From Candidatus Omnitrophota bacterium (GTDB lineage: Bacteria > Omnitrophota > Gorgyraeia > B26-G9), in assembly GCA_043826565.1 (NCBI GenBank), contig JBDRPX010000025.1, positions 36,966 to 100,965 on the forward strand: a stretch of 64,000 bases of DNA, read 5' to 3'. The position numbers and the translations under genes are program-made. The notes under the pieces were generated by a model. That model was not told where the DNA came from and ran no database searches. It worked only from the letters and a program-made list of their open reading frames with translations. Positions 806 to 51,567 of the stretch are shown here, one piece after another. Each line of letters opens with the position of its first letter. The first letter of the stretch is position 1.

Positions 806-3697
806 ATGTTTAAAAAATATTTATTATTTATAATTTTGTTTTGTTTATTTTCTGGAGGGTGTTCCCAGGAAGGGAAAAAAACATTATTGGAGCTTAACTC
901 CGGAAATGCTTTTGAAGAAGATTTTAATGCAAGATCGGGAGTTTTTATAACTGTAGGACCTGTAAAGACTAAGGATGAACCAGTTATTTTAAATATTCAA
1001 ATAAAAAGAGCTAAGACAGCGGGGGAGGTACCTTTAATATCTAATGAAAAATGGGATGCTCCTTCTGAAGGAATATCGTTTCTTGATACAGATGCTTTGA
1101 TCAAGGAGGATCAGATGTTAGAGGGATGGAGTATCGTTTCTGTCTCCAAAGAGAATAAGGCGGCTATGATTGTTTGGCGTCCTCGAAAAAAAGAAATACA
1201 GTCTTCTGTAGGGGGTATTTATGATGCTTGCTGGCAATCTCCTTTGGAAACTCTGAAGAAAGGGGAAAACATATTTTATCTTGATAATCATGTGCAACTT
1301 TTGGCTGGAGATGTTCTGGGATTGTTTGTATACAAAGATATTCCCACGGCAATGAAGGATGAAAACTCCCTAAAGGCATATAAATATTACAAAGGAGGAA
1401 AGGCCGAAAGCATTAACACGAATATTGATGTTAAAGATACTGTTGGTGCCTATGCTTTTATGCCGTTTTCATATACTTCTTTTATTAATAAAAATTTTAA
1501 TATAGTTGAAGGGGCGGAGCAAATAGTGGAAGTTGAGCTGCCGAATTCAATAAAAAGCAATTACTACAGGATAAGGTTATCAGCTTCAGAAGGCAACTTA
1601 CAGATCCTTAATAATGCAAATAATAAACCGTATTGCTTGAAAAATGTGGCGAGTCTTGAAAATTATCCTAGAAGATTTTATTTTATCGGTTCATTGTTGG
1701 TTTTGCTGACGGCGTTACTTGTGTCCTTAAAAGGGCGAGTGTTTAATTTTATAGGGTTTTTAAATATTTTATTTGGAATAAAATTATTATTATTTAATGA
1801 TGCGGGTCCGATTTTTAGCTACTTTATTGCTTATATTCTTTTCTGGATAATACCCGTACTGGTTGTCTGGGAGTGGTTAAGCAAAAAGTTATCTGGGTTA
1901 CCAAATCTATTTAACTTTCTTGCCAGCCATATTATCTGGTTTGCCACCTTCCTTTTTGTCGGGAAACTGTTGTGTCGATTTAATCTAAACTTAAATATAT
2001 TAATATCCGGATTGTTAATTTTTAATTTTTTTGTTTATCTTGCCAAAAAGGAAAAAGTACACGATGCTTTTAAGTCTATTATATTGCACTTTGAAAGTGC
2101 CTCTTTTTTGTTTAAATTTTTGCTGACAACAGGAGGAGGAATTCTTTTCCTTGTCTGGGCACAGCAGGGGCTTTGGCAAAGAACTGACTTTGATGTATTT
2201 TGCTATGTGGCAATTGTAAATAAGCTTCTAGCTTCAGGTGCATTAGCTGCGGGGAATTATGATCCGTTTCTTGGCCCGCCGATTAGATTCATGGCTCCTT
2301 ATATTCAAAATCCAGAAGTTCTTTATCATGCTTTTTTATCTGTGGTAAGCAATCAAGATGTAAATATTGTATTTGCGGTCGGTGCATTGATTGTTACTGT
2401 ATTTTGGTGTTTTATTGCCGGGGGTTTTGCTTGGTATTTTTATCCGGGGAATAAACGGATTATTGGGTTGACATTCTTTTTTGCAGTTGTTTTGCAAATT
2501 TCAAATCGGCTTTTTAGTGTTCCTCTTTTTGTCCACAATGCTAATCCCGGGGCTACGGGGCATGTTGTGCTTTTATCAATGGTCTTGTTCCATAATATGT
2601 TTAATAGTACTAATAATCGATGGATGCTTGGTATTGCTGTAACAGCTTTAACTGCTGCTTTACTTTGTCATGTTGAGTTTGTGATTTTCACTTTGTTCTA
2701 TTGTTTGATTACGGCAGGTGATTGGATTATTAGATGTTTATATAAGAAGAAGTGGTCTTTTGAAGAACCGGTTTTTTTAATCGCTAGTGCTCTTTTGATT
2801 ACGACGGCTTATTTACTGATGCCCAGAGGCATTATGAATGATAATGCTTTTCAAATGGGAACATTTTACCCGTCAAATTATATAGAATGGTTTGGCCAAA
2901 AAATAGTGGATCCTAAAATTGTTTTTACGAATGATGGAGTATATTGGGTGAGAAACATTGGTTATATTATTGCTTTTATTTTTTTAGCGATAAAATCTCA
3001 AAGAGAGCGGCGTTTTACTAGAATTTTGTCCGTTGCGGCAATTATGCTGCCGATTTTTTACTTTATTCCAGGGATTCCCGGCTTATTGGTATCTAGGATA
3101 TCTGAAATAGGATTTATGCGTCTTATGGATGGCTGGAGTGATTTTTTTATTATTTTAGGCCTAATTGTGTTTGCTTTTTATGTTGATAAGCTTTTAATGA
3201 AATATTTAGTATTGAGACATCGGGAGCTTTTTCTTGTCATTTTAGTGGTTTTCGTTATGGGAGTTGTAAGCTGTTCAAAATTGTTTCTGCCTCCGAATAG
3301 ATATGATTATGTGCACGTATTTAGGGTTAAGAGCTTGCCACTTTTAAGACATTTAAAGCAATACTATACTAATGATTTACTAATTACCGAGACTTCGCGG
3401 GCATATTGGATGGGAGCACAATTGCCGGGATATGTTTATGCGTATATGGTGGGCAGACTTCGGACCTATTATGATGGAGCGGGAGCGCGGGTAGAGGCTA
3501 ATGAGAGAATATGGCAGCATGATGGTTCTCCCCAGGAGATAGCGCAGATGGTGAGGAATCTATCTCCGGCAAATGTGCTTATCGGAAAGAAGGAGAAATA
3601 TTATACTGATTTTTTGCATAATGAGTTTTTTATAGTTTTATATGAAGATGATCAATGGGCATTGTTTGGACTAAAACATAAGGGTTTTTATCAATAA
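806..3697 (+). CDS. 963-aa polytopic membrane protein with an N-terminal lipoprotein signal and a ~290-aa extracytoplasmic domain; function unknown
   Basis: The N-terminus MFKKYLLFIILFCLFSGGCSQ has a lipobox-like LFSGGC. Residues ~300-960 are strongly hydrophobic and segmented, suggesting 12 or more TM helices. It is a long uninterrupted ORF in an AT-rich genome. Confidence 0.65.
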   Translation: MFKKYLLFIILFCLFSGGCSQEGKKTLLELNSGNAFEEDFNARSGVFITVGPVKTKDEPVILNIQIKRAKTAGEVPLISNEKWDAPSEGISFLDTDALIKEDQMLEGWSIVSVSKENKAAMIVWRPRKKEIQSSVGGIYDACWQSPLETLKKGENIFYLDNHVQLLAGDVLGLFVYKDIPTAMKDENSLKAYKYYKGGKAESINTNIDVKDTVGAYAFMPFSYTSFINKNFNIVEGAEQIVEVELPNSIKSNYYRIRLSASEGNLQILNNANNKPYCLKNVASLENYPRRFYFIGSLLVLLTALLVSLKGRVFNFIGFLNILFGIKLLLFNDAGPIFSYFIAYILFWIIPVLVVWEWLSKKLSGLPNLFNFLASHIIWFATFLFVGKLLCRFNLNLNILISGLLIFNFFVYLAKKEKVHDAFKSIILHFESASFLFKFLLTTGGGILFLVWAQQGLWQRTDFDVFCYVAIVNKLLASGALAAGNYDPFLGPPIRFMAPYIQNPEVLYHAFLSVVSNQDVNIVFAVGALIVTVFWCFIAGGFAWYFYPGNKRIIGLTFFFAVVLQISNRLFSVPLFVHNANPGATGHVVLLSMVLFHNMFNSTNNRWMLGIAVTALTAALLCHVEFVIFTLFYCLITAGDWIIRCLYKKKWSFEEPVFLIASALLITTAYLLMPRGIMNDNAFQMGTFYPSNYIEWFGQKIVDPKIVFTNDGVYWVRNIGYIIAFIFLAIKSQRERRFTRILSVAAIMLPIFYFIPGIPGLLVSRISEIGFMRLMDGWSDFFIILGLIVFAFYVDKLLMKYLVLRHRELFLVILVVFVMGVVSCSKLFLPPNRYDYVHVFRVKSLPLLRHLKQYYTNDLLITETSRAYWMGAQLPGYVYAYMVGRLRTYYDGAGARVEANERIWQHDGSPQEIAQMVRNLSPANVLIGKKEKYYTDFLHNEFFIVLYEDDQWALFGLKHKGFYQ

Positions 3698-46114: not shown

Positions 46115-47542
46115 ATGAAAAAAAAAGTTGTTTGTTTTATTATGGCCGGCGGAGAGGGGATGAGATTATGGCCAATGAGCCGTTCGCATTTTCCCAAGCA
46201 ATTACATTCTTTATTGGGTGATAGTTCTCTGCTGCAGCAGTCGATTGCCAGACTTCTAAAAACCAGTTCTCCGAAAAACATTCTCATCGGAACCCGGGAA
46301 GATCTTAATTTTTCCGTAAGGCAGCAGTGGGCAGATATGAATCTGGGGACTGAGCCATGGCTGATTTTAGAGCCGGTAAGCCGGAATACCGCACCGGCGA
46401 TTGCCTTGGCTATTCTGGCAGCTCGTGAGCGTTTTGGCGAAGATGTGATCATGGCTACGTTTGCCGCGGACCATGTGATTAAAAATAAAAAACGTTTTGA
46501 CGAATTGCTTAAGGTAGGCGTAAAAATGGCTCAACAAGGGAATATTGTTACTTTTGGGATTGTTCCGACTTATCCGGAAACAGGATACGGTTATATTAAG
46601 GCCGGCAAGAAACTGGGCAAGGATGTATTTGACGTGGCTGAATTTAAGGAAAAGCCGACTTTGAAAATTGCGGAAAAATATTTAAAAAACAACAGCTATT
46701 TATGGAATAGCGGTATGTTTGTTTTTGATACAAGTATCGTAGCCAAAGCTTTGGAAAAGCTTTCACCTCAAGTATGGAAACCTGCAGAGCGGGTGTGGGA
46801 AAAAAGAAAATCTAAAAAAAGCAGTGTAGGTTTTGATGAAAAAGCATTTAGTAAATTCCCCAAAATATCCATTGACTATGCGGTTATGGAAAAAGCCCCC
46901 AAGTTGGCAGTGATTAAAGCTGATTTTAATTGGTGTGATGTGGGCTGCTGGCGGATGGTACATGAGATTTCGCCGAAGGATAAGAATGGGAATGTGTTTT
47001 CCGGCAATATATTTAGTGTAGATACCACCGATACTTTTGTAAAATCAGACAAGCGTTTTGTGGCTACAGTGGGGCTTAAAGGAGTTGTTATTATTGATAC
47101 GCCGGATGCTTTACTTATTTCTGAAAAGGGCCGCAGCCAGGATGTCAAAGCAATCGTTGAGGAATTAAATGCCCGTAAGTCATTGCTAACTAAATTTCAT
47201 ACCACGGTATATCGTCCTTGGGGCAATTATACAGTCCTTGAAGAAGGCCCGGGATATAAGATAAAAAGAGTAGTGGTAAATCCTAAGCAGCGATTATCGC
47301 TACAGAAGCACAACCACCGTAGTGAACATTGGGTGGTTATTTCCGGAAAAGCGCGGATCATAAGTGATGATAATTCAATTTTGCTAAAAGCGAATGAAAG
47401 TATTTTTATCCGAAAGAAAGGTAAACATAGGATTATTAATCCGTTTAAGAAAGAAGTAGTGATTATTGAGGTGCAGACCGGGGCTTTGATTAATGAAGAT
47501 GATATTGTCCGATTTGATGATATTTATGACCGGGTAGTCTAA
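46115..47542 (+). CDS. manC: Bifunctional mannose-1-phosphate guanylyltransferase / mannose-6-phosphate isomerase (type II PMI; ManC/CpsB)
   Basis: The N-terminal NTP-transferase domain is FIMAGGEGMRLWPMS. The C-terminal cupin is QKHNHRSEHWVVISGKA. The ATG at 46115 is preceded by AGAGGA; the track ORF begins at 46100. Confidence 0.8.
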   Translation: MKKKVVCFIMAGGEGMRLWPMSRSHFPKQLHSLLGDSSLLQQSIARLLKTSSPKNILIGTREDLNFSVRQQWADMNLGTEPWLILEPVSRNTAPAIALAILAARERFGEDVIMATFAADHVIKNKKRFDELLKVGVKMAQQGNIVTFGIVPTYPETGYGYIKAGKKLGKDVFDVAEFKEKPTLKIAEKYLKNNSYLWNSGMFVFDTSIVAKALEKLSPQVWKPAERVWEKRKSKKSSVGFDEKAFSKFPKISIDYAVMEKAPKLAVIKADFNWCDVGCWRMVHEISPKDKNGNVFSGNIFSVDTTDTFVKSDKRFVATVGLKGVVIIDTPDALLISEKGRSQDVKAIVEELNARKSLLTKFHTTVYRPWGNYTVLEEGPGYKIKRVVVNPKQRLSLQKHNHRSEHWVVISGKARIISDDNSILLKANESIFIRKKGKHRIINPFKKEVVIIEVQTGALINEDDIVRFDDIYDRVV

Positions 47543-47555
47543 AGGAGCCGTCGGA

Positions 47556-47585
47556 CTGGCAAAAAACAAATTAATAGGGTATAAT
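47556..47585 (+). promoter_or_regulatory. Candidate sigma70 promoter (CTGGCA-18-TATAAT) driving the structured RNA
   Basis: TATAAT at 47580-47585. The -35 element is only a 4/6 match. Confidence 0.35.
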
Positions 47586-47629
47586 TATACTAAGGACAAA
47601 GTATATAGTTTTAGCAGTTTTATCCTTTT

Positions 47630-47790
47630 ACGGACAAAGGCAAACCCTGTGTGAACAGGGGGCGTCCCAAAGGTGGCAAACGTTGTTTGTGCAACCGGGA
47701 CCCCGAAGAAAAGCAGCGCTATTATAAATATATTATTCGGGGCAAAGCCGCGGGTCTAAGGAATATCTTAGATAGCCGGGTTACCGAAAG
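47630..47790 (+). ncRNA. Candidate c-di-GMP-I (GEMM) riboswitch aptamer(s), possibly tandem or with an insertion
   Basis: GC-rich island in an AT-rich genome. GGCAAACC-CUGU-GUGA(GNRA)-ACAGGGGGCGUCC, then GGGGCAAAGCCGCGGGUCUAAGG...CUUAGAUAGCCGGGUUACCGAAAG. This mirrors the Vc2 GEMM blocks GGCAAACC..GAAA..GGGACGCAAAGCC..GGCCUAAACC..GGGGUUACCGA, as I recall the consensus. An intrinsic terminator follows, and a pilin gene lies downstream. Confidence 0.45.
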
Positions 47791-47801
47791 AAAAGGAACA
47801 T

Positions 47802-47845
47802 AAGCCACTTAAGCAGTTTCTAGAAAAGGTGGCTTATTTTTTTTT
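47802..47845 (+). terminator. Rho-independent terminator (expression platform of the structured RNA)
   Basis: AAGCCAC-(loop 20 nt)-GTGGCTT followed by ATTTTTTTTT. Confidence 0.75.
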
Positions 47846-48069
47846 AATGAAGCAATGCTTTATGATGTCTGGTGACATCATAAAGGGGATGGCTGAATTA
47901 ACCCGCCCGAAAGTCCGCCTTCAATAGGGCGAGATTTCGCTAGTATTGTGGCGAACATGGCGAGGTTTAATTCGTGCAGATTACTTAGCCTCATTACATT
48001 TGCTAAGTAATGCACTTATTAAAGAAAGGAGGTGAAAGCGCGTATTGTCTATTAAATCCTTGACAATAT

Positions 48070-48098
48070 GCTAAATATCTGATATATTTTAAACAATT
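48070..48098 (+). promoter_or_regulatory. Near-consensus sigma70 promoter for the pilin gene (TTGACA-17-TATATT)
   Basis: TTGACA at 48070-48075, a 17-nt spacer, and TATATT at 48093-48098. This is 45 nt upstream of the ATG. Confidence 0.5.
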
Positions 48099-48143
48099 GA
48101 AAAACTGTTTGTATTAAATGTTTGGAAGGGAGGTGACAGGGTA

Positions 48144-48545
48144 ATGTTTAATAAAAAAGGTTTTACGTTGGTTGAACTTTTGATGGTTGTTATCATCATC
48201 GGTATTTTAGTTACACTTGCAGTTCCGAACTACTACAGATCAATAGAAAGAGCAAAAGGTGGTAAAGCAAAAGCAGCTTTAGACGGTATTAGAAAAGCTG
48301 AATTGCAGTACAGAGCGTTTAATGATACTTATACAGGGACAATTGCTGATTTGGCGGAGTATGATTTGCCGCCGGAGATTGCTGCTGGGGCAGATTCAGA
48401 TTGGGCTTATACTATCCCGACATCAACATCAACAGCACTGGGTCTTACTGCCACAAGAAGTGCTGGTCCGCATGCTACAGAAGTAATTAGTATGGATCAG
48501 GATGGTGTATTGACTTCAACAATAGGTGATTGGGGCGTCAGATAA
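48144..48545 (+). CDS. Type IV pilin / pseudopilin (prepilin-type N-terminal cleavage/methylation domain)
   Basis: MFNKKGFTLVELLMVVIIIGILVTLAVPNY has the class III signal G|FTLVE with the Glu+5. The protein is 133 aa. Confidence 0.8.
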   Translation: MFNKKGFTLVELLMVVIIIGILVTLAVPNYYRSIERAKGGKAKAALDGIRKAELQYRAFNDTYTGTIADLAEYDLPPEIAAGADSDWAYTIPTSTSTALGLTATRSAGPHATEVISMDQDGVLTSTIGDWGVR

Positions 48546-48580
48546 CCCTGATGTAGTTTAGGAGAAATATATTAAAAATG

Positions 48581-48637
48581 TGCTATCGGTTTATTCTCGA
48601 AAAAGCTTTATGGGGAAAAGCCGATAGCATTTTTTTT
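48581..48637 (+). terminator. Rho-independent terminator after the pilin gene
   Basis: TGCTATCGG-(loop)-CCGATAGCA followed by TTTTTTTT. Confidence 0.75.
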
Positions 48638-48678
48638 ATTTTATAAATGTATTTTATATAAATCTTAAGGAGGAAGTG

Positions 48679-49761
48679 ATGCGGATAATAGGTATTGCTA
48701 ATCAAAAGGGGGGGTGCGGCAAGACGACTACCGCGATTAATTTTTCAGCATGTTTGGCTCAGCTAAAAAAGAATGTATTGCTTATTGATTTAGACCCGCA
48801 GGGGCATGCGACATTAGGCCTTAATATTAAGCATGATGATTTGGAGAAAAGTATGTATAATGTTTTAACTCCGGATGCTGCTGAAAAAGTTAGGCTTGAT
48901 GAAATAATAGTACCTATTTCCAAAAACCTTGATTTAGCGCCGGCGACAATACTTTTATCCGCAATTGAACAGGAGCTCTCCGGAAAACCGGAAAGAGAAG
49001 CAAAATTATATCAGGCTATTTCTTTGATGGTTATGAAAAAAACTTATGATTTTATTATTATTGATTGCCCTCCGAGTTTAGGGATACTTACTTTTAATGC
49101 TCTGCGCGCATCAGGGGAAGTTATTGCGCCGGTGGATACGGGTTTTTTCTCAATGCAGGGAATTAGTAAATTGCTTGAAATTACTAACCTTATTAGTTCT
49201 CGAGTGAAAACCAGTATTAAGGTGAATGCTTTAATTACCATGTTTGATAAACGGACAAAGTTTTCCCAGGAAGTAAAGGAAGAGATTCACAAATATTTTA
49301 GCGGAAATGTGTTTAATACTATTATTAATAATAACGTTCGTGTGCGGGAGGCTTCCAGTTATGGGATGCCGGTAATTTCTTATGACAAAAATTGCCGGGG
49401 AGCTGTTGATTACATGGCCTTGGCAAAAGAGGTGATTAAGCCGCCGGCAAGAAACTTAATTGAAAAAATTGTTTCGCAAGCGTTTGGTCCTAAAAAAATC
49501 GAACAGGGTGTATTGTTTACCTATAGTGCTCCGGGAGCTGCTCAGGTGGAAATTGCCGGAGATTTTAATGGATGGGTTGCTGCTTCTGAAAGTAAGCTCG
49601 AAAATGTAAATGACGGAGTTTGGGCTAAAGTATATAGGTTAAACCCGGGACGTTATCGCTATAAATTCGTAGTTGACGGGCAGTGGGTTGTTGACCCCAA
49701 TAATCCGAATATTGAAACCGACGAAGTCGGCAATAGTAACTCATTATTGGAAATTAAATAA
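48679..49761 (+). CDS. ParA/MinD-family deviant Walker-A ATPase fused to a C-terminal CBM48 (AMPK-beta-type glycogen-binding) domain
   Basis: GIANQKGGCGKTTTAINFSACLA is the KGGxGKT deviant Walker A with the signature Lys. The C-terminal ~90 aa VLFTYSAPGAAQVEIAGDFNGWV...GVWAKVYRLNPGRYRYKFVVDGQWVVDPNNP match the CBM48 consensus (GxFxxW...W...L.pGxYxYKFxVDGxWxxDP). The AAGGAGG RBS is 5 nt before the ATG at 48679. Confidence 0.75.
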   Translation: MRIIGIANQKGGCGKTTTAINFSACLAQLKKNVLLIDLDPQGHATLGLNIKHDDLEKSMYNVLTPDAAEKVRLDEIIVPISKNLDLAPATILLSAIEQELSGKPEREAKLYQAISLMVMKKTYDFIIIDCPPSLGILTFNALRASGEVIAPVDTGFFSMQGISKLLEITNLISSRVKTSIKVNALITMFDKRTKFSQEVKEEIHKYFSGNVFNTIINNNVRVREASSYGMPVISYDKNCRGAVDYMALAKEVIKPPARNLIEKIVSQAFGPKKIEQGVLFTYSAPGAAQVEIAGDFNGWVAASESKLENVNDGVWAKVYRLNPGRYRYKFVVDGQWVVDPNNPNIETDEVGNSNSLLEIK

Positions 49762-49962
49762 TTTAAAATATTCTTGACTATTTAGCTTGATTAGTAATAA
49801 TATAATAAAAGGATATAAAAAGTTTGCAATATAAAGACTTTTAAGTTTATTATAGAGTACAAGCTTTACTTTATAACTTTACAACTTTAAAACTTTCAAC
49901 TTAAATATATGTGCCCTCTGGGCAGGAATCCGTGAGCTGAATATGTTTGTAAGAAGACGTCG

Positions 49963-50880
49963 ATGAGTAATTCAAAAAAATTAGGTAAAGGCTTAGAAGA
50001 TATATCGTATTTGTTTCTTTCCCCAGCAGAAGAAGATTCTCTTTCTAAAGAAAGCTTTGGTCGGCAGGAGAAAAAAACCGCCTCTATTTTAGAAACTCCG
50101 ATTAAAAGTATTTGTCTGATCGGGAACAATTCCTCTTTTCTTGATGCTTTTCTGGTCATTAATTTATCATTAGCTTTAGCCCGTTTGGGTATGCGTATTG
50201 CGGTTGTTGATATGGAGCCGGAACTGCCTTGTTTGAATTTTTTTCTGGGAAATGAATTACAAAAAGGCACTGTGGATAATTCTGAAGGTTTGGTCCGGGA
50301 GGGGCCCTTAGGCGTTAAATTGGTCAGCCTGAATAAATTTACTTTTGAGCATCTTGCGAAAAATGAGAATAGTGACAGGATTATTGAACAGCTAAGTAAA
50401 ATAGAAGAGGATGTTGACCTGATTTTGGTAAATGTAATGCAAAAGAATTTATTTGCCGCAAAGAGTGCTTTAAATGACTTGGGAACGGAATTTTTAGTGA
50501 TCTCTGCACCGGATAAAAACAGAATTCTGGATTCCTATCGAATAATAAAAACAATCTTTCAGAGTAACCCTCTTTCTAAAGTTGGTTTGGTAGTTACTGA
50601 TGTTAACCATATGTATGAAATAGACGCGGTTTATAATAAAATGTTTGGTGCAGTTAAAAAATTTTTAGATAAGGAATTATATAAATGCGGGTTTTTGTTT
50701 AAAATCAGGCAGGATGTTGATTTTAAAGCAACGATAGCATCATTTTATGATGCGGATTTAACCGCATGTATTTCCAATATAGCTCAGATTGTTTTGTTGC
50801 GGTTAAATTTGGGCGGGGATGTTATAACTAAAGGCTCATTTTTTAAAAAAATGGTCAGCGGTTTTAGTTTGCCGAGGTGA
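49963..50880 (+). CDS. Walker-A-degenerate ParA/MinD-like protein with ParB-like N-terminal LGKGL peptide (candidate partner/adaptor)
   Basis: The N-terminus MSNSKKLGKGLEDISYLF resembles the ParB/Spo0J N-terminal ParA-stimulating motif (LGRGL/LGKGI). ICLIGNNSSFLDAFLVINLSLALARLGMRIAVVDME aligns with the MinD [34 protein letters not shown], but the P-loop lysines and glycines are lost. Confidence 0.55.
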   Translation: MSNSKKLGKGLEDISYLFLSPAEEDSLSKESFGRQEKKTASILETPIKSICLIGNNSSFLDAFLVINLSLALARLGMRIAVVDMEPELPCLNFFLGNELQKGTVDNSEGLVREGPLGVKLVSLNKFTFEHLAKNENSDRIIEQLSKIEEDVDLILVNVMQKNLFAAKSALNDLGTEFLVISAPDKNRILDSYRIIKTIFQSNPLSKVGLVVTDVNHMYEIDAVYNKMFGAVKKFLDKELYKCGFLFKIRQDVDFKATIASFYDADLTACISNIAQIVLLRLNLGGDVITKGSFFKKMVSGFSLPR

Positions 50881-51567
50881 GTGATGACAACTGTTTTTCG
50901 TAAAACAGTAATCGAAAAAGAAAAACTCAGAGAAATAATACTGAAAAATCCGGAATATATTCAGCCGGATCTCAGTTTTATAGATCTTAAACTGGGTACT
51001 GAAGACGAAGGAATTATTGATTTTTTAGGAGTTGATAAAACCGCTTGTTTGAATATAGTTAACTTTAGTACCGGAGAAAATGCGGATTTGCTGATTTCGG
51101 CTTTAAGTCAGGCGCATTGGCTGAGGAAAAATGAAACTTTGGTAAAAAGACTTTTCTTTAGTGAAAATGTCGATCTAACCCAGAGTCCGGTTATAATGCT
51201 CATTGGTTCTGATTTTTCGGAAAAGTCAAAATCCGCCGCAAAACAAATTAATGGGCATTTGATAAAATTTATTCAGTTCCAATATGTGATCTCTCAAGAC
51301 CAGGATGCAATATTCTTTGAGGAAGTTTTTTGCAATAAAAAGAATTTACAGCAGGAAATTGCTGTTGAGGTCAAGGAGAAAGAATCAATAACTCAGACAA
51401 CAGTATCTCTTAAGTCTTCAGTTATTAGAAAAGAGACATTGCCGGTACCGGAGGTATCTGCGGAAGCACCTCACCCCAGGATAGAAGAAATATTGCTTTC
51501 CCCGGAAGAAATCGCCGAGTTTATGGATTTCGACAGAGTCTTAGAACGCGAAAAATCCGCTGAATAA
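50881..51567 (+). CDS. Hypothetical protein with an acidic C-terminus, translationally coupled to the upstream pseudo-ParA gene
   Basis: The start codon abuts the upstream stop (TGA GTG ATG). There is no recognisable domain. The E/D-rich tail reads EEILLSPEEIAEFMDFDRVLEREKSAE. Confidence 0.45.
   Translation: MMTTVFRKTVIEKEKLREIILKNPEYIQPDLSFIDLKLGTEDEGIIDFLGVDKTACLNIVNFSTGENADLLISALSQAHWLRKNETLVKRLFFSENVDLTQSPVIMLIGSDFSEKSKSAAKQINGHLIKFIQFQYVISQDQDAIFFEEVFCNKKNLQQEIAVEVKEKESITQTTVSLKSSVIRKETLPVPEVSAEAPHPRIEEILLSPEEIAEFMDFDRVLEREKSAE

Follow-up and report, generated by a model that had tools for sequence, protein, structure and literature searches.

Positions 47556 to 47845 (plus strand) of a 64-kb stretch of Candidatus Omnitrophota DNA (the whole of which is referred to here as the window) encode a structured RNA that, judging from its sequence and from comparison with its relatives, is a class I cyclic di-GMP (c-di-GMP) riboswitch (i.e., GEMM-I) and represents a new structural variant of this known class. 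In this variant, two additional hairpins (A and B) are inserted into the junction of the aptamer, and the element carries its own promoter and intrinsic terminator upstream of a type IV pilin gene. The evidence consists of a family match, a conserved structure with a conserved promoter and terminator, an association with particular genes, and complementarity between hairpin A and the terminator. From these data, we infer that the ligand is c-di-GMP, in which direction the switch works, and that transcription can read through to the pilin gene. We regard as likely the explanation as a whole, namely, that the element is an interrupted GEMM-I riboswitch with its own promoter and terminator, in which hairpin A serves as an antiterminator and which acts as an OFF switch.

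Among the 4,227 families of Rfam 15, RF01051 (c-di-GMP-I) gave the sole match above the gathering score in the whole window (47629 to 47788, plus strand; 41.4 bits versus a gathering score of 35; E = 1.1e-4 for the whole 64 kb and 1.4e-6 for an 801-nt region). Together with the covariation described below, which backs the fold, this match bears out the GEMM (c-di-GMP-I) identity that an earlier note had proposed from the letters alone, and a direct reading of positions 47200 to 48600 located every motif that the note had quoted. The other class that it had raised (i.e., c-di-GMP-II; RF01786) had no match in 47400 to 48200 even at E <= 10, and a permissive scan of the same interval yielded only chance-level matches (E > 1) to other Rfam families. 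The region had also been called a GC-rich island; the enrichment is real but modest (47 to 50% G+C versus approximately 30 to 45% nearby), and neighboring coding DNA reaches 55%. The predicted fold is more stable than those of shuffled sequences (z = -2.5 to -2.6). The RF01051 match is full length (model positions 1 to 87), with 97 skipped nucleotides in place of the 19-nt interior of helix P2; thus, the aptamer is not an ordinary one.

Relatives of the element were gathered by gene-order comparison, by a genome scan with a 305-amino-acid (aa) protein encoded nearby as the query, and by one metagenome pattern scan (9 loci; the pattern required a standard P2 and a 62- to 92-nt insert and hence undercounts). 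This yielded 19 distinct RNA copies, all or nearly all from Omnitrophota. Fifteen sequences were aligned (alignment A2), and an additional copy (L010) was read separately from its sequence. The copies share one order of elements: a promoter (TGGCA-N17/18-GGTATAMT), the P1 5' strand, AAAGGCAAAC, P2 with a GNRA loop, GGRCG, hairpin A (outer stem, (G)UCCC/GGGA(C)), hairpin B (CCCGAA...UUCGGG), (G)CAAAGCY, P3, GCCGGGYUACCG, the P1 3' strand, and the terminator. The distance between GRCGU and CAAAG is 39 to 88 nt in the relatives, and the two hairpins of the window together span 78 nt. The features of the window element are listed below, with nucleotide roles and Vc2 numbering after PMC4744006; lines that give a motif only are those quoted in the earlier note.

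47624 to 47629, plus strand: P1 5' strand (CCUUUU), which pairs with 47791 to 47796; three of six pairs are changed on both sides.
47639 to 47644, plus strand: GGCAAA core, invariant (15/15) and in agreement with the RF01051 consensus; G47639 corresponds to G20 (a ligand contact), G47640 to G21, and C47641 to C22.
47639 to 47646, plus strand: GGCAAACC.
47645 to 47660, plus strand: P2 hairpin (CCCUGU-GUGA-ACAGGG), 6 bp, with the GNRA loop at 47651 to 47654; five of six pairs are compensatory, and 98.9% of the cells are paired.
47658 to 47667, plus strand: GGGGGCGUCC.
47661 to 47663, plus strand: GGC (canonically GAC); C47663 corresponds to C44, the partner of G47775, and this C is invariant in A2.
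47664 to 47701, plus strand: inserted hairpin A, with outer stem GUCCC/GGGAC and a variable interior; 100% of the cells are paired, and two of five pairs are compensatory.
47675 to 47681, plus strand: second GGCAAAC.
47702 to 47741, plus strand: inserted hairpin B (CCCGAA...UUCGGG), with a conserved AU-rich loop (CUAUUAUAAAUAU); five of six pairs are compensatory, and the hairpin is present in all 19 copies.
47739 to 47749, plus strand: GGGGCAAAGCC.
47742 to 47749, plus strand: GCAAAGCC; G47742 corresponds to G45, C47743 to C46, and A47744 to A47; G, C, and AAA are invariant (RF01051 consensus, GCAAAgCc).
47746 to 47782, plus strand: P3, with UCUAAG/CUUAGA at the place of the tetraloop receptor and an AG bulge containing G47775 (G83); 13 pairs, 96.4% paired, three compensatory, in agreement with P3 of RF01051.
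47750 to 47761, plus strand: GCGGGUCUAAGG.
47775 to 47790, plus strand: GCCGGGUUACCGAAAG.
47783 to 47796, plus strand: ACCG, a linker, and the P1 3' strand (AAAAGG; 47791 to 47796); C47784 corresponds to C92 (a ligand contact), and CC is invariant.

Covariation at homologous loci, which the earlier note had suggested as a check, supports this fold. In A2, 92.3% of the cells in the named structure are paired, versus 34 to 55% when the partners are slid by 1 to 3 columns; compensatory changes occur at 19 of 40 pairs, and none of 500 shuffles reached the observed values. P1, P2, A, B, and P3 are all backed by covariation, P2 and hairpin B being the best supported (five of six pairs compensatory in each), and RNAalifold independently recovers P2, A, B, and P3 from A2. 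P1 reads ACCAU/AUGGU on direct reading of L014 and L028 versus CCUUUU/AAAAGG in the window, and hairpin B is shrunk to CUCCG-GCGA-CGGAG in L031. The P2 loop fits GNRA in 15 of 15 sequences, with invariant G and A columns (GUGA in the window; GUAA, GAAA, and GCAA elsewhere). In three copies (L001, 2345 to 2445; L002, 2401 to 2500; L010, 2489 to 2590), a branched insert of approximately 90 nt takes the place of the simple P2 GNRA hairpin; P2 has thus been enlarged at two separate sites in this riboswitch lineage. The pilin gene of L031 contains, next to a run of N (3340 to 3390), the hairpin A segment in reverse complement, which is most likely an assembly or scaffolding artifact.

The ligand pocket of Vc2 is defined by G20, A47, and C92, of which A47 (A47744 in the window) intercalates between the guanines of the ligand, and by the universally conserved interhelical pair C44-G83 (PMC4744006). 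The equivalents of G20, G21, C22, C44, G45, C46, A47, G83, and C92 are invariant in A2 (15/15), and those of C44 and G83 are jointly U and A in L010 (i.e., a single compensatory event). P1, P2, and P3 meet at one junction, which also carries the two extra helices. In type 1 GEMM riboswitches, a GNRA loop on P2 docks into a receptor in P3; here the loop is present, and the site opposite on P3 is a regular UCUAA/UUAGA helix rather than an 11-nt receptor. A continuous P2 3' strand leading into the junction (GGGACGCAAAGCC) is absent, because hairpins A and B split it in all 19 copies; in the window, the two hairpins (78 nt together) separate the halves of the canonical GGGACG/CAAAGCC junction.

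Three relatives also reached the RF01051 threshold (L003, 37.1 bits; L011, 36.4 bits; L041, 40.6 bits), and L001 scored 33.0 bits. The best model of the clan for many relatives was RF03167 (c-di-GMP-I-GGC), which gave 27 to 38 bits for interrupted copies (top score, 37.8) and 48.5 bits for an uninterrupted copy (L047); these scores are best because the RF03167 model includes P1. We rejected this family, since the A47 equivalent is A in all copies while the RF03167 consensus (GCGAAgCc) has G and since its gathering score of 59 bits was never reached. The 3'3'-cyclic GMP-AMP (cGAMP) riboswitch (GEMM-Ib) has A at the position of G20; it was rejected because the G20 equivalent is G in all aligned sequences. 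A coding reading of the region (a 50-aa open reading frame [ORF] at 47651 to 47803) was also discarded, since the frame is not conserved and overlaps hairpins of varying length.

The aptamer is followed immediately by a terminator.

47800 to 47845, plus strand: intrinsic terminator, with a stem formed by 47800 to 47810 (AUAAGCCACUU) and 47826 to 47837 (AAGGUGGCUUAU), a 15-nt loop, and U9 at 47837 to 47845 (RNAfold, -11.9 kcal/mol).

A simple scan with a loop limit of 3 to 8 nt missed this terminator, which RNAfold forms. The earlier description of it as a clean intrinsic terminator holds across the family, as an equivalent hairpin and U-run follow the element in all 19 copies and comprise at least three sequence types. 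In the window, AAAGGUGGC is common to the 5' arm of hairpin A (47669 to 47677) and the 3' arm of the terminator (47825 to 47833), and the string shared by hairpin A and the terminator is GGGUCGG in L003, L006, and L023 and GGUGGCU in L039. The longest shared substring exceeded those of shuffles (p <= 0.05) in 8 of the 19 sequences, and the duplex of hairpin A with the terminator 5' arm had a mean z of -1.5 (p <= 0.05 in 8/19). This pairing tracks the type of terminator: hairpin A pairs with its own terminator at a mean of -11.6 kcal/mol versus -8.4 kcal/mol with a terminator of another type, while hairpin B, used as a control, exhibits no preference (-5.9 versus -6.2 kcal/mol, respectively). 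When transcripts were cut before the terminator 3' arm, the minimum free energy (MFE) structure paired the terminator 5' arm with hairpin A in 9 of the 19 copies. At this cut point in the window, the antiterminator fold is at -56.2 kcal/mol versus -58.2 kcal/mol for the MFE structure; it breaks P1 and the junction and leaves P2, B, and P3 in place. The layout of a transcription attenuator is therefore present (i.e., a hairpin and U-run 3' of the aptamer, plus mutually exclusive pairing, although the latter is not found in every member), and hairpin A probably acts as the switch arm.

On the basis of this pairing, we propose the following mechanism. The leader would be a transcript of approximately 255 nt that starts at its own promoter and ends at the intrinsic terminator. 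Without ligand, the 5' arm of hairpin A would pair with the 5' arm of the terminator before the terminator 3' arm is transcribed, and for topological reasons this antiterminator could not coexist with P1 or with a closed hairpin A. Upon binding of c-di-GMP, P1, the junction, and hairpin A would be locked, the terminator 5' arm would be free, and transcription would stop at 47845. At low c-di-GMP levels, polymerase would continue across the spacer of approximately 300 nt, and the resulting pilin transcripts would supplement those from the proximal promoter.

The opposite direction of switching (i.e., an ON switch, with termination blocked and pilin transcription raised upon binding of c-di-GMP, as with the c-di-GMP-II riboswitch of Clostridioides difficile pilA1) appears unlikely. 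High c-di-GMP levels often promote type IV pili in other bacteria, and the full-length MFE structure contains the terminator by default, which would suit a ligand-induced antiterminator. However, the terminator is a self-contained hairpin whose first nucleotide is 4 nt past P1, and none of it is sequestered by the folded aptamer, which speaks against an ON switch. Moreover, the sole conserved competitor of the terminator that we found is the 5' arm of hairpin A, and its pairing is incompatible with the ligand-bound fold.

The output of the proposed OFF switch depends on the arrangement of the locus, in which the next gene is, as the earlier note had read it, a type IV pilin with a promoter of its own (N_methyl motif; 11/12 promoter match).

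47556 to 47585, plus strand: distal promoter of the riboswitch transcript (CTGGCA, 18-nt spacer, TATAAT; sigma-70-like, 10/12 matches in a consensus scan).
48060 to 48088, plus strand: proximal pilin promoter (TTGACA, 17 nt, TG-TATATT; 11/12 matches), located 3' of the riboswitch terminator.
48144 to 48545, plus strand: type IV pilin gene (133 aa; Pfam N_methyl, E = 2.5e-7), the presumed target of read-through.

The start of the riboswitch transcript is predicted near 47592, and the distal promoter layout (TGGCA-N17/18-GGTATAMT) also precedes the RNA in pilin-linked relatives. A sigma-54 reading of TGGCA...TTGCA in the relatives was rejected, since the GG-to-GC spacing, judged by eye, is 10 rather than 12. 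The terminator is separated from the pilin start codon by approximately 300 nt in the window and its closest relatives, and this spacer includes the second promoter, approximately 215 nt downstream of the terminator; CTTGACA-N17-TGATAAATAT occurs at the equivalent place in most relatives. Because of this promoter, only pilin transcripts initiated at the distal promoter are open to modulation by the riboswitch. A Candidatus Omnitrophota metagenome-assembled genome encodes a protein with 100% identity to the pilin, and nearly all of the approximately 90 homologs of the pilin are from Omnitrophota or lack a taxon name. Contig comparison indicated that the gene order is kept among relatives (i.e., ManC, the long spacer with the RNA, the pilin, a ParA/CBM48 protein, the 305-aa ParA-like protein, and a 226-aa protein).

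The same arrangement brings up the possibility of a stand-alone small RNA, in which the transcript of approximately 255 nt would act in trans or titrate c-di-GMP and the aptamer would set its stability or conformation. In favor of this possibility, the element is bounded by a promoter of its own and an efficient-looking terminator, approximately 215 nt past which the pilin has a strong promoter to itself, and the hairpin B loop is conserved; hairpin B, the promoter, and the terminator are also kept in a copy that lacks the aptamer core (L022). There is a precedent, since a preprint reports a Vc2-dependent upstream small RNA (bioRxiv 10.1101/617340). On the other hand, two variants (L041 and L038) are classical cis leaders with a ribosome-binding site and an ORF directly 3' of them, and the dependence of the hairpin A-terminator complementarity on terminator type points to termination control. 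No target complementarity was found for the hairpin B loop, and the five other matches to its 13-mer in the window lie in unrelated contexts. We therefore hold a small RNA to be quite improbable as the explanation of the element.

The loop itself (YUAUUAUAAAUAU; 47719 to 47731 in the window) is conserved in pilin-linked copies and persists in the core-less L022 (2960 to 2990), which suggests that hairpin B may have a role beyond the aptamer. The loop was probed with a 13-mer, with one mismatch allowed; the loop is itself a one-mismatch match, and one other match that was checked (6539) lies inside an ORF. We rejected the loop as a promoter or a shared operator, since it has no usable -35 element on either strand and the other five matches in the window share no context.

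The interrupted riboswitch is also found at other genes, which include prepilin-type and ATPase genes. In L041, the variant and its terminator are directly 5' of the ribosome-binding site and ATG of a prepilin-type gene. In L038, which is GC-rich, the interrupted form lies upstream of an ATP-synt_C gene and a b-subunit-like gene, and the homologs of the L038 c-subunit are from Omnitrophota. The c-subunit of L047 is 85% identical to that of L038, and the orthologous intergenic site in L047 (2839 to 2936) contains an uninterrupted GEMM-I riboswitch (GGGCGCAAAGC; GGGCG runs straight into CAAAGC) with a similar terminator. The occurrence of the canonical form at the orthologous c-subunit site indicates that the interrupted form derives from canonical GEMM-I and serves the same gene, which argues for an unchanged ligand. 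In L047, the genes that flank the riboswitch and terminator belong to an F-type ATPase operon and encode its epsilon-like subunit and its c-subunit. In L043, which is related to L047, the corresponding gap of 44 nt is too short for a riboswitch, and the cluster is near a giant ORF of 6,681 aa. Seymour et al. (2023, PMC10066038) reported that nonrespiratory F-type ATPase clusters adjoin type 4a pilus clusters in Omnitrophota; they proposed host attachment roles for both and suggested that the F-type ATPase loci mediate attachment and movement on surfaces.

These loci also bear on whether the insertion has changed or widened the ligand specificity (e.g., toward another cyclic dinucleotide or a linear pGpG-like molecule) by remodeling the pocket near A47. 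The insertion lies between the equivalents of C44/G45 and C46 (i.e., right beside A47), most members have marginal scores with the c-di-GMP-I models of Rfam, and a single change of G20 to A is known to switch the specificity of GEMM-I to 3'3'-cGAMP. However, the G20, A47, and C92 equivalents are all of the c-di-GMP type and invariant, the C44-G83 interhelical pair is kept, and the uninterrupted GEMM-I at the orthologous ATPase site of L047 has the same contact bases. An altered ligand is thus very unlikely.

The earlier note had left open a tandem or an interrupted aptamer, and only the latter stands: two binding sites, as suggested by GGCAAAC at 47639 and 47675 and by the resemblance of CCCGAAGAAAAG (47702 to 47713) to CCGAAAGAAAAGG (47784 to 47796), are effectively refuted by comparison, since the second GGCAAAC is unique to the window (where it lies inside the variable interior of hairpin A), there is a single set of A47, P3, and C92 equivalents, Rfam gives one match, and an internal-repeat test over the 19 sequences was negative (3.58 within, 3.49 between, and 3.17 shuffled). 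An origin of the insert by tandem duplication was rejected for the same reasons (i.e., the window-only second GGCAAAC and the negative test).

Several observations weigh against the interrupted OFF switch that we favor. Regarding the family assignment, most relatives score below the Rfam gathering score: the best clan match is 27 to 38 bits in 12 relatives, none was reported for 2, and only 3 relatives reach the RF01051 cutoff. The insertion is one base pair from the ligand pocket, and binding could be altered by it. Two pairings are open to the junction bases C47641, G47664, C47701, and G47742, which vary too little to decide between them, so the insertion point is either between C44 and G45 or between G45 and C46. 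Regarding the switch, the hairpin A-terminator complementarity is absent or weak in L010, L012, L031, L038, and L041; hairpin A is local and stable and would be expected to fold first as the RNA is made, a kinetic obstacle to the antiterminator; and the full-length MFE fold of the window has the terminator formed. The copies are related, so the p-values are not independent. The pilin carries its own strong promoter, so that the contribution of the riboswitch to pilin expression may be small or large. Finally, L022 has no GEMM core yet keeps the promoter, hairpin B, the terminator, and a GAAAGGAGGUG motif, and part of the element may thus act independently of the aptamer.

A bolder extension of the OFF-switch explanation is possible, and we offer it tentatively. 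The inserted hairpins may be an expression platform built inside the aptamer's own junction, with hairpin A as a ligand-gated arm that reaches approximately 130 nt to the terminator. The copies may then represent a small Omnitrophota regulon tied to c-di-GMP that includes the major type IV pilin, pseudopilins, and the c-subunit operon of the nonrespiratory "symbiotic" F-type ATPase (i.e., the machinery proposed for host cell attachment). In a stronger form of this idea, the pocket would be remodeled and the ligand would be a molecule other than c-di-GMP.

The spacer between the terminator and the pilin gene has features of its own. A perfect 12-bp hairpin (CUUUAUGAUGUC-UGGU-GACAUCAUAAAG; 47858 to 47885) without a U-run lies directly past the riboswitch terminator, and L011 has a similar GUCUGUGAC hairpin at the equivalent place. 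Upstream of the pilin promoter, the noncoding spacer contains GAAAGGAGGTG (48024 to 48034), an 11-nt perfect complement of the 16S rRNA tail, and its sole other copy in the 64 kb (with one mismatch) is the pilin's own ribosome-binding site (48125 to 48135). Nearly all relatives have one or two motifs of this kind in their spacer, with no conserved ORF after them; they could be decoy or standby ribosome sites on read-through transcripts. A small ORF following the GAAAGGAGGUG spacer motif was rejected, since its start codon, frame, and length are not conserved. In L001, a RelB/YafQ-ParE toxin-antitoxin pair (1108 to 1642) between ManC and the riboswitch lengthens the spacer there.

Downstream of the pilin, the conserved set (48676 to 51567) encodes a ParA/MinD-type ATPase fused to a CBM48/AMPK glycogen-binding module, the divergent 305-aa ParA-like protein (CbiA match of 21.3 bits, below the 25.4-bit cutoff), and a protein of approximately 226 aa with no Pfam match. 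The combination of ParA-type ATPase and carbohydrate-binding module beside a pilin gene is puzzling. A motif regular-expression search of the window found no GGDEF or EAL genes, which says little, as 64 kb is a fraction of the genome.

Among known systems, the closest is Vc2-type GEMM-I (RF01051; Vibrio cholerae). The window element shares with it the P1/P2/P3 junction; the GNRA loop of P2; the GGCAAAC, GCAAAGCC, and GGGYUACCG blocks; the G20, A47, and C92 equivalents; the C44-G83 pair; and a score above the gathering threshold. It differs in that two hairpins interrupt the P2 3' strand at the junction and in that a Watson-Crick UCUAA/UUAGA helix replaces the 11-nt receptor (CCUAAG/UAUGG) of Vc2; most interrupted copies also fall below the Rfam threshold. 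RF03167 differs from the interrupted copies by a consensus G where they have the A of the standard type (GCAAAGCC). The uninterrupted GEMM-I of L047 is from the same phylum, has the same c-subunit target as L038 and a similar terminator (GCGCCCA...UGGGCGUUU), and, like the interrupted form, contains an aptamer segment (junction GGGCGC) complementary to the terminator 5' arm. It lacks hairpins A and B, however, and its antiterminator segment is likely the aptamer junction itself.

In C. difficile, a class I c-di-GMP OFF switch precedes flgB and a class II ON switch precedes pilA1, and both use transcription termination. The Omnitrophota element resembles these switches in having a c-di-GMP aptamer followed by an intrinsic terminator and in being associated with surface appendage genes, including a type IV pilin. 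It differs from them in phylum and in having inserted hairpins, and the pilA1 switch is of class II; furthermore, the C. difficile switches are directly in the 5' untranslated region of their targets, whereas a second promoter intervenes in the window. The literature that we searched contained no description of the interrupted GEMM-I architecture or of c-di-GMP riboswitches in Omnitrophota. Thus, the family is known, while what appears to be new is the architecture, together with the insertion's apparent role as a switching arm. The comparison suggests that a well-studied aptamer, GEMM-I, tolerates a two-helix insertion of 40 to 90 nt one base pair from its ligand and that the insert has apparently been recruited as a switching arm. 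Since standard models miss most members of the interrupted form, c-di-GMP regulons in candidate phyla are probably undercounted. In the case of the uncultured Omnitrophota, which are believed to depend on hosts, the element provides a concrete, testable link from a second messenger to the type IV pilus, and the same link extends to the "symbiotic" F-type ATPase loci. The RNA is amenable to study wholly in vitro, with no need for culture.

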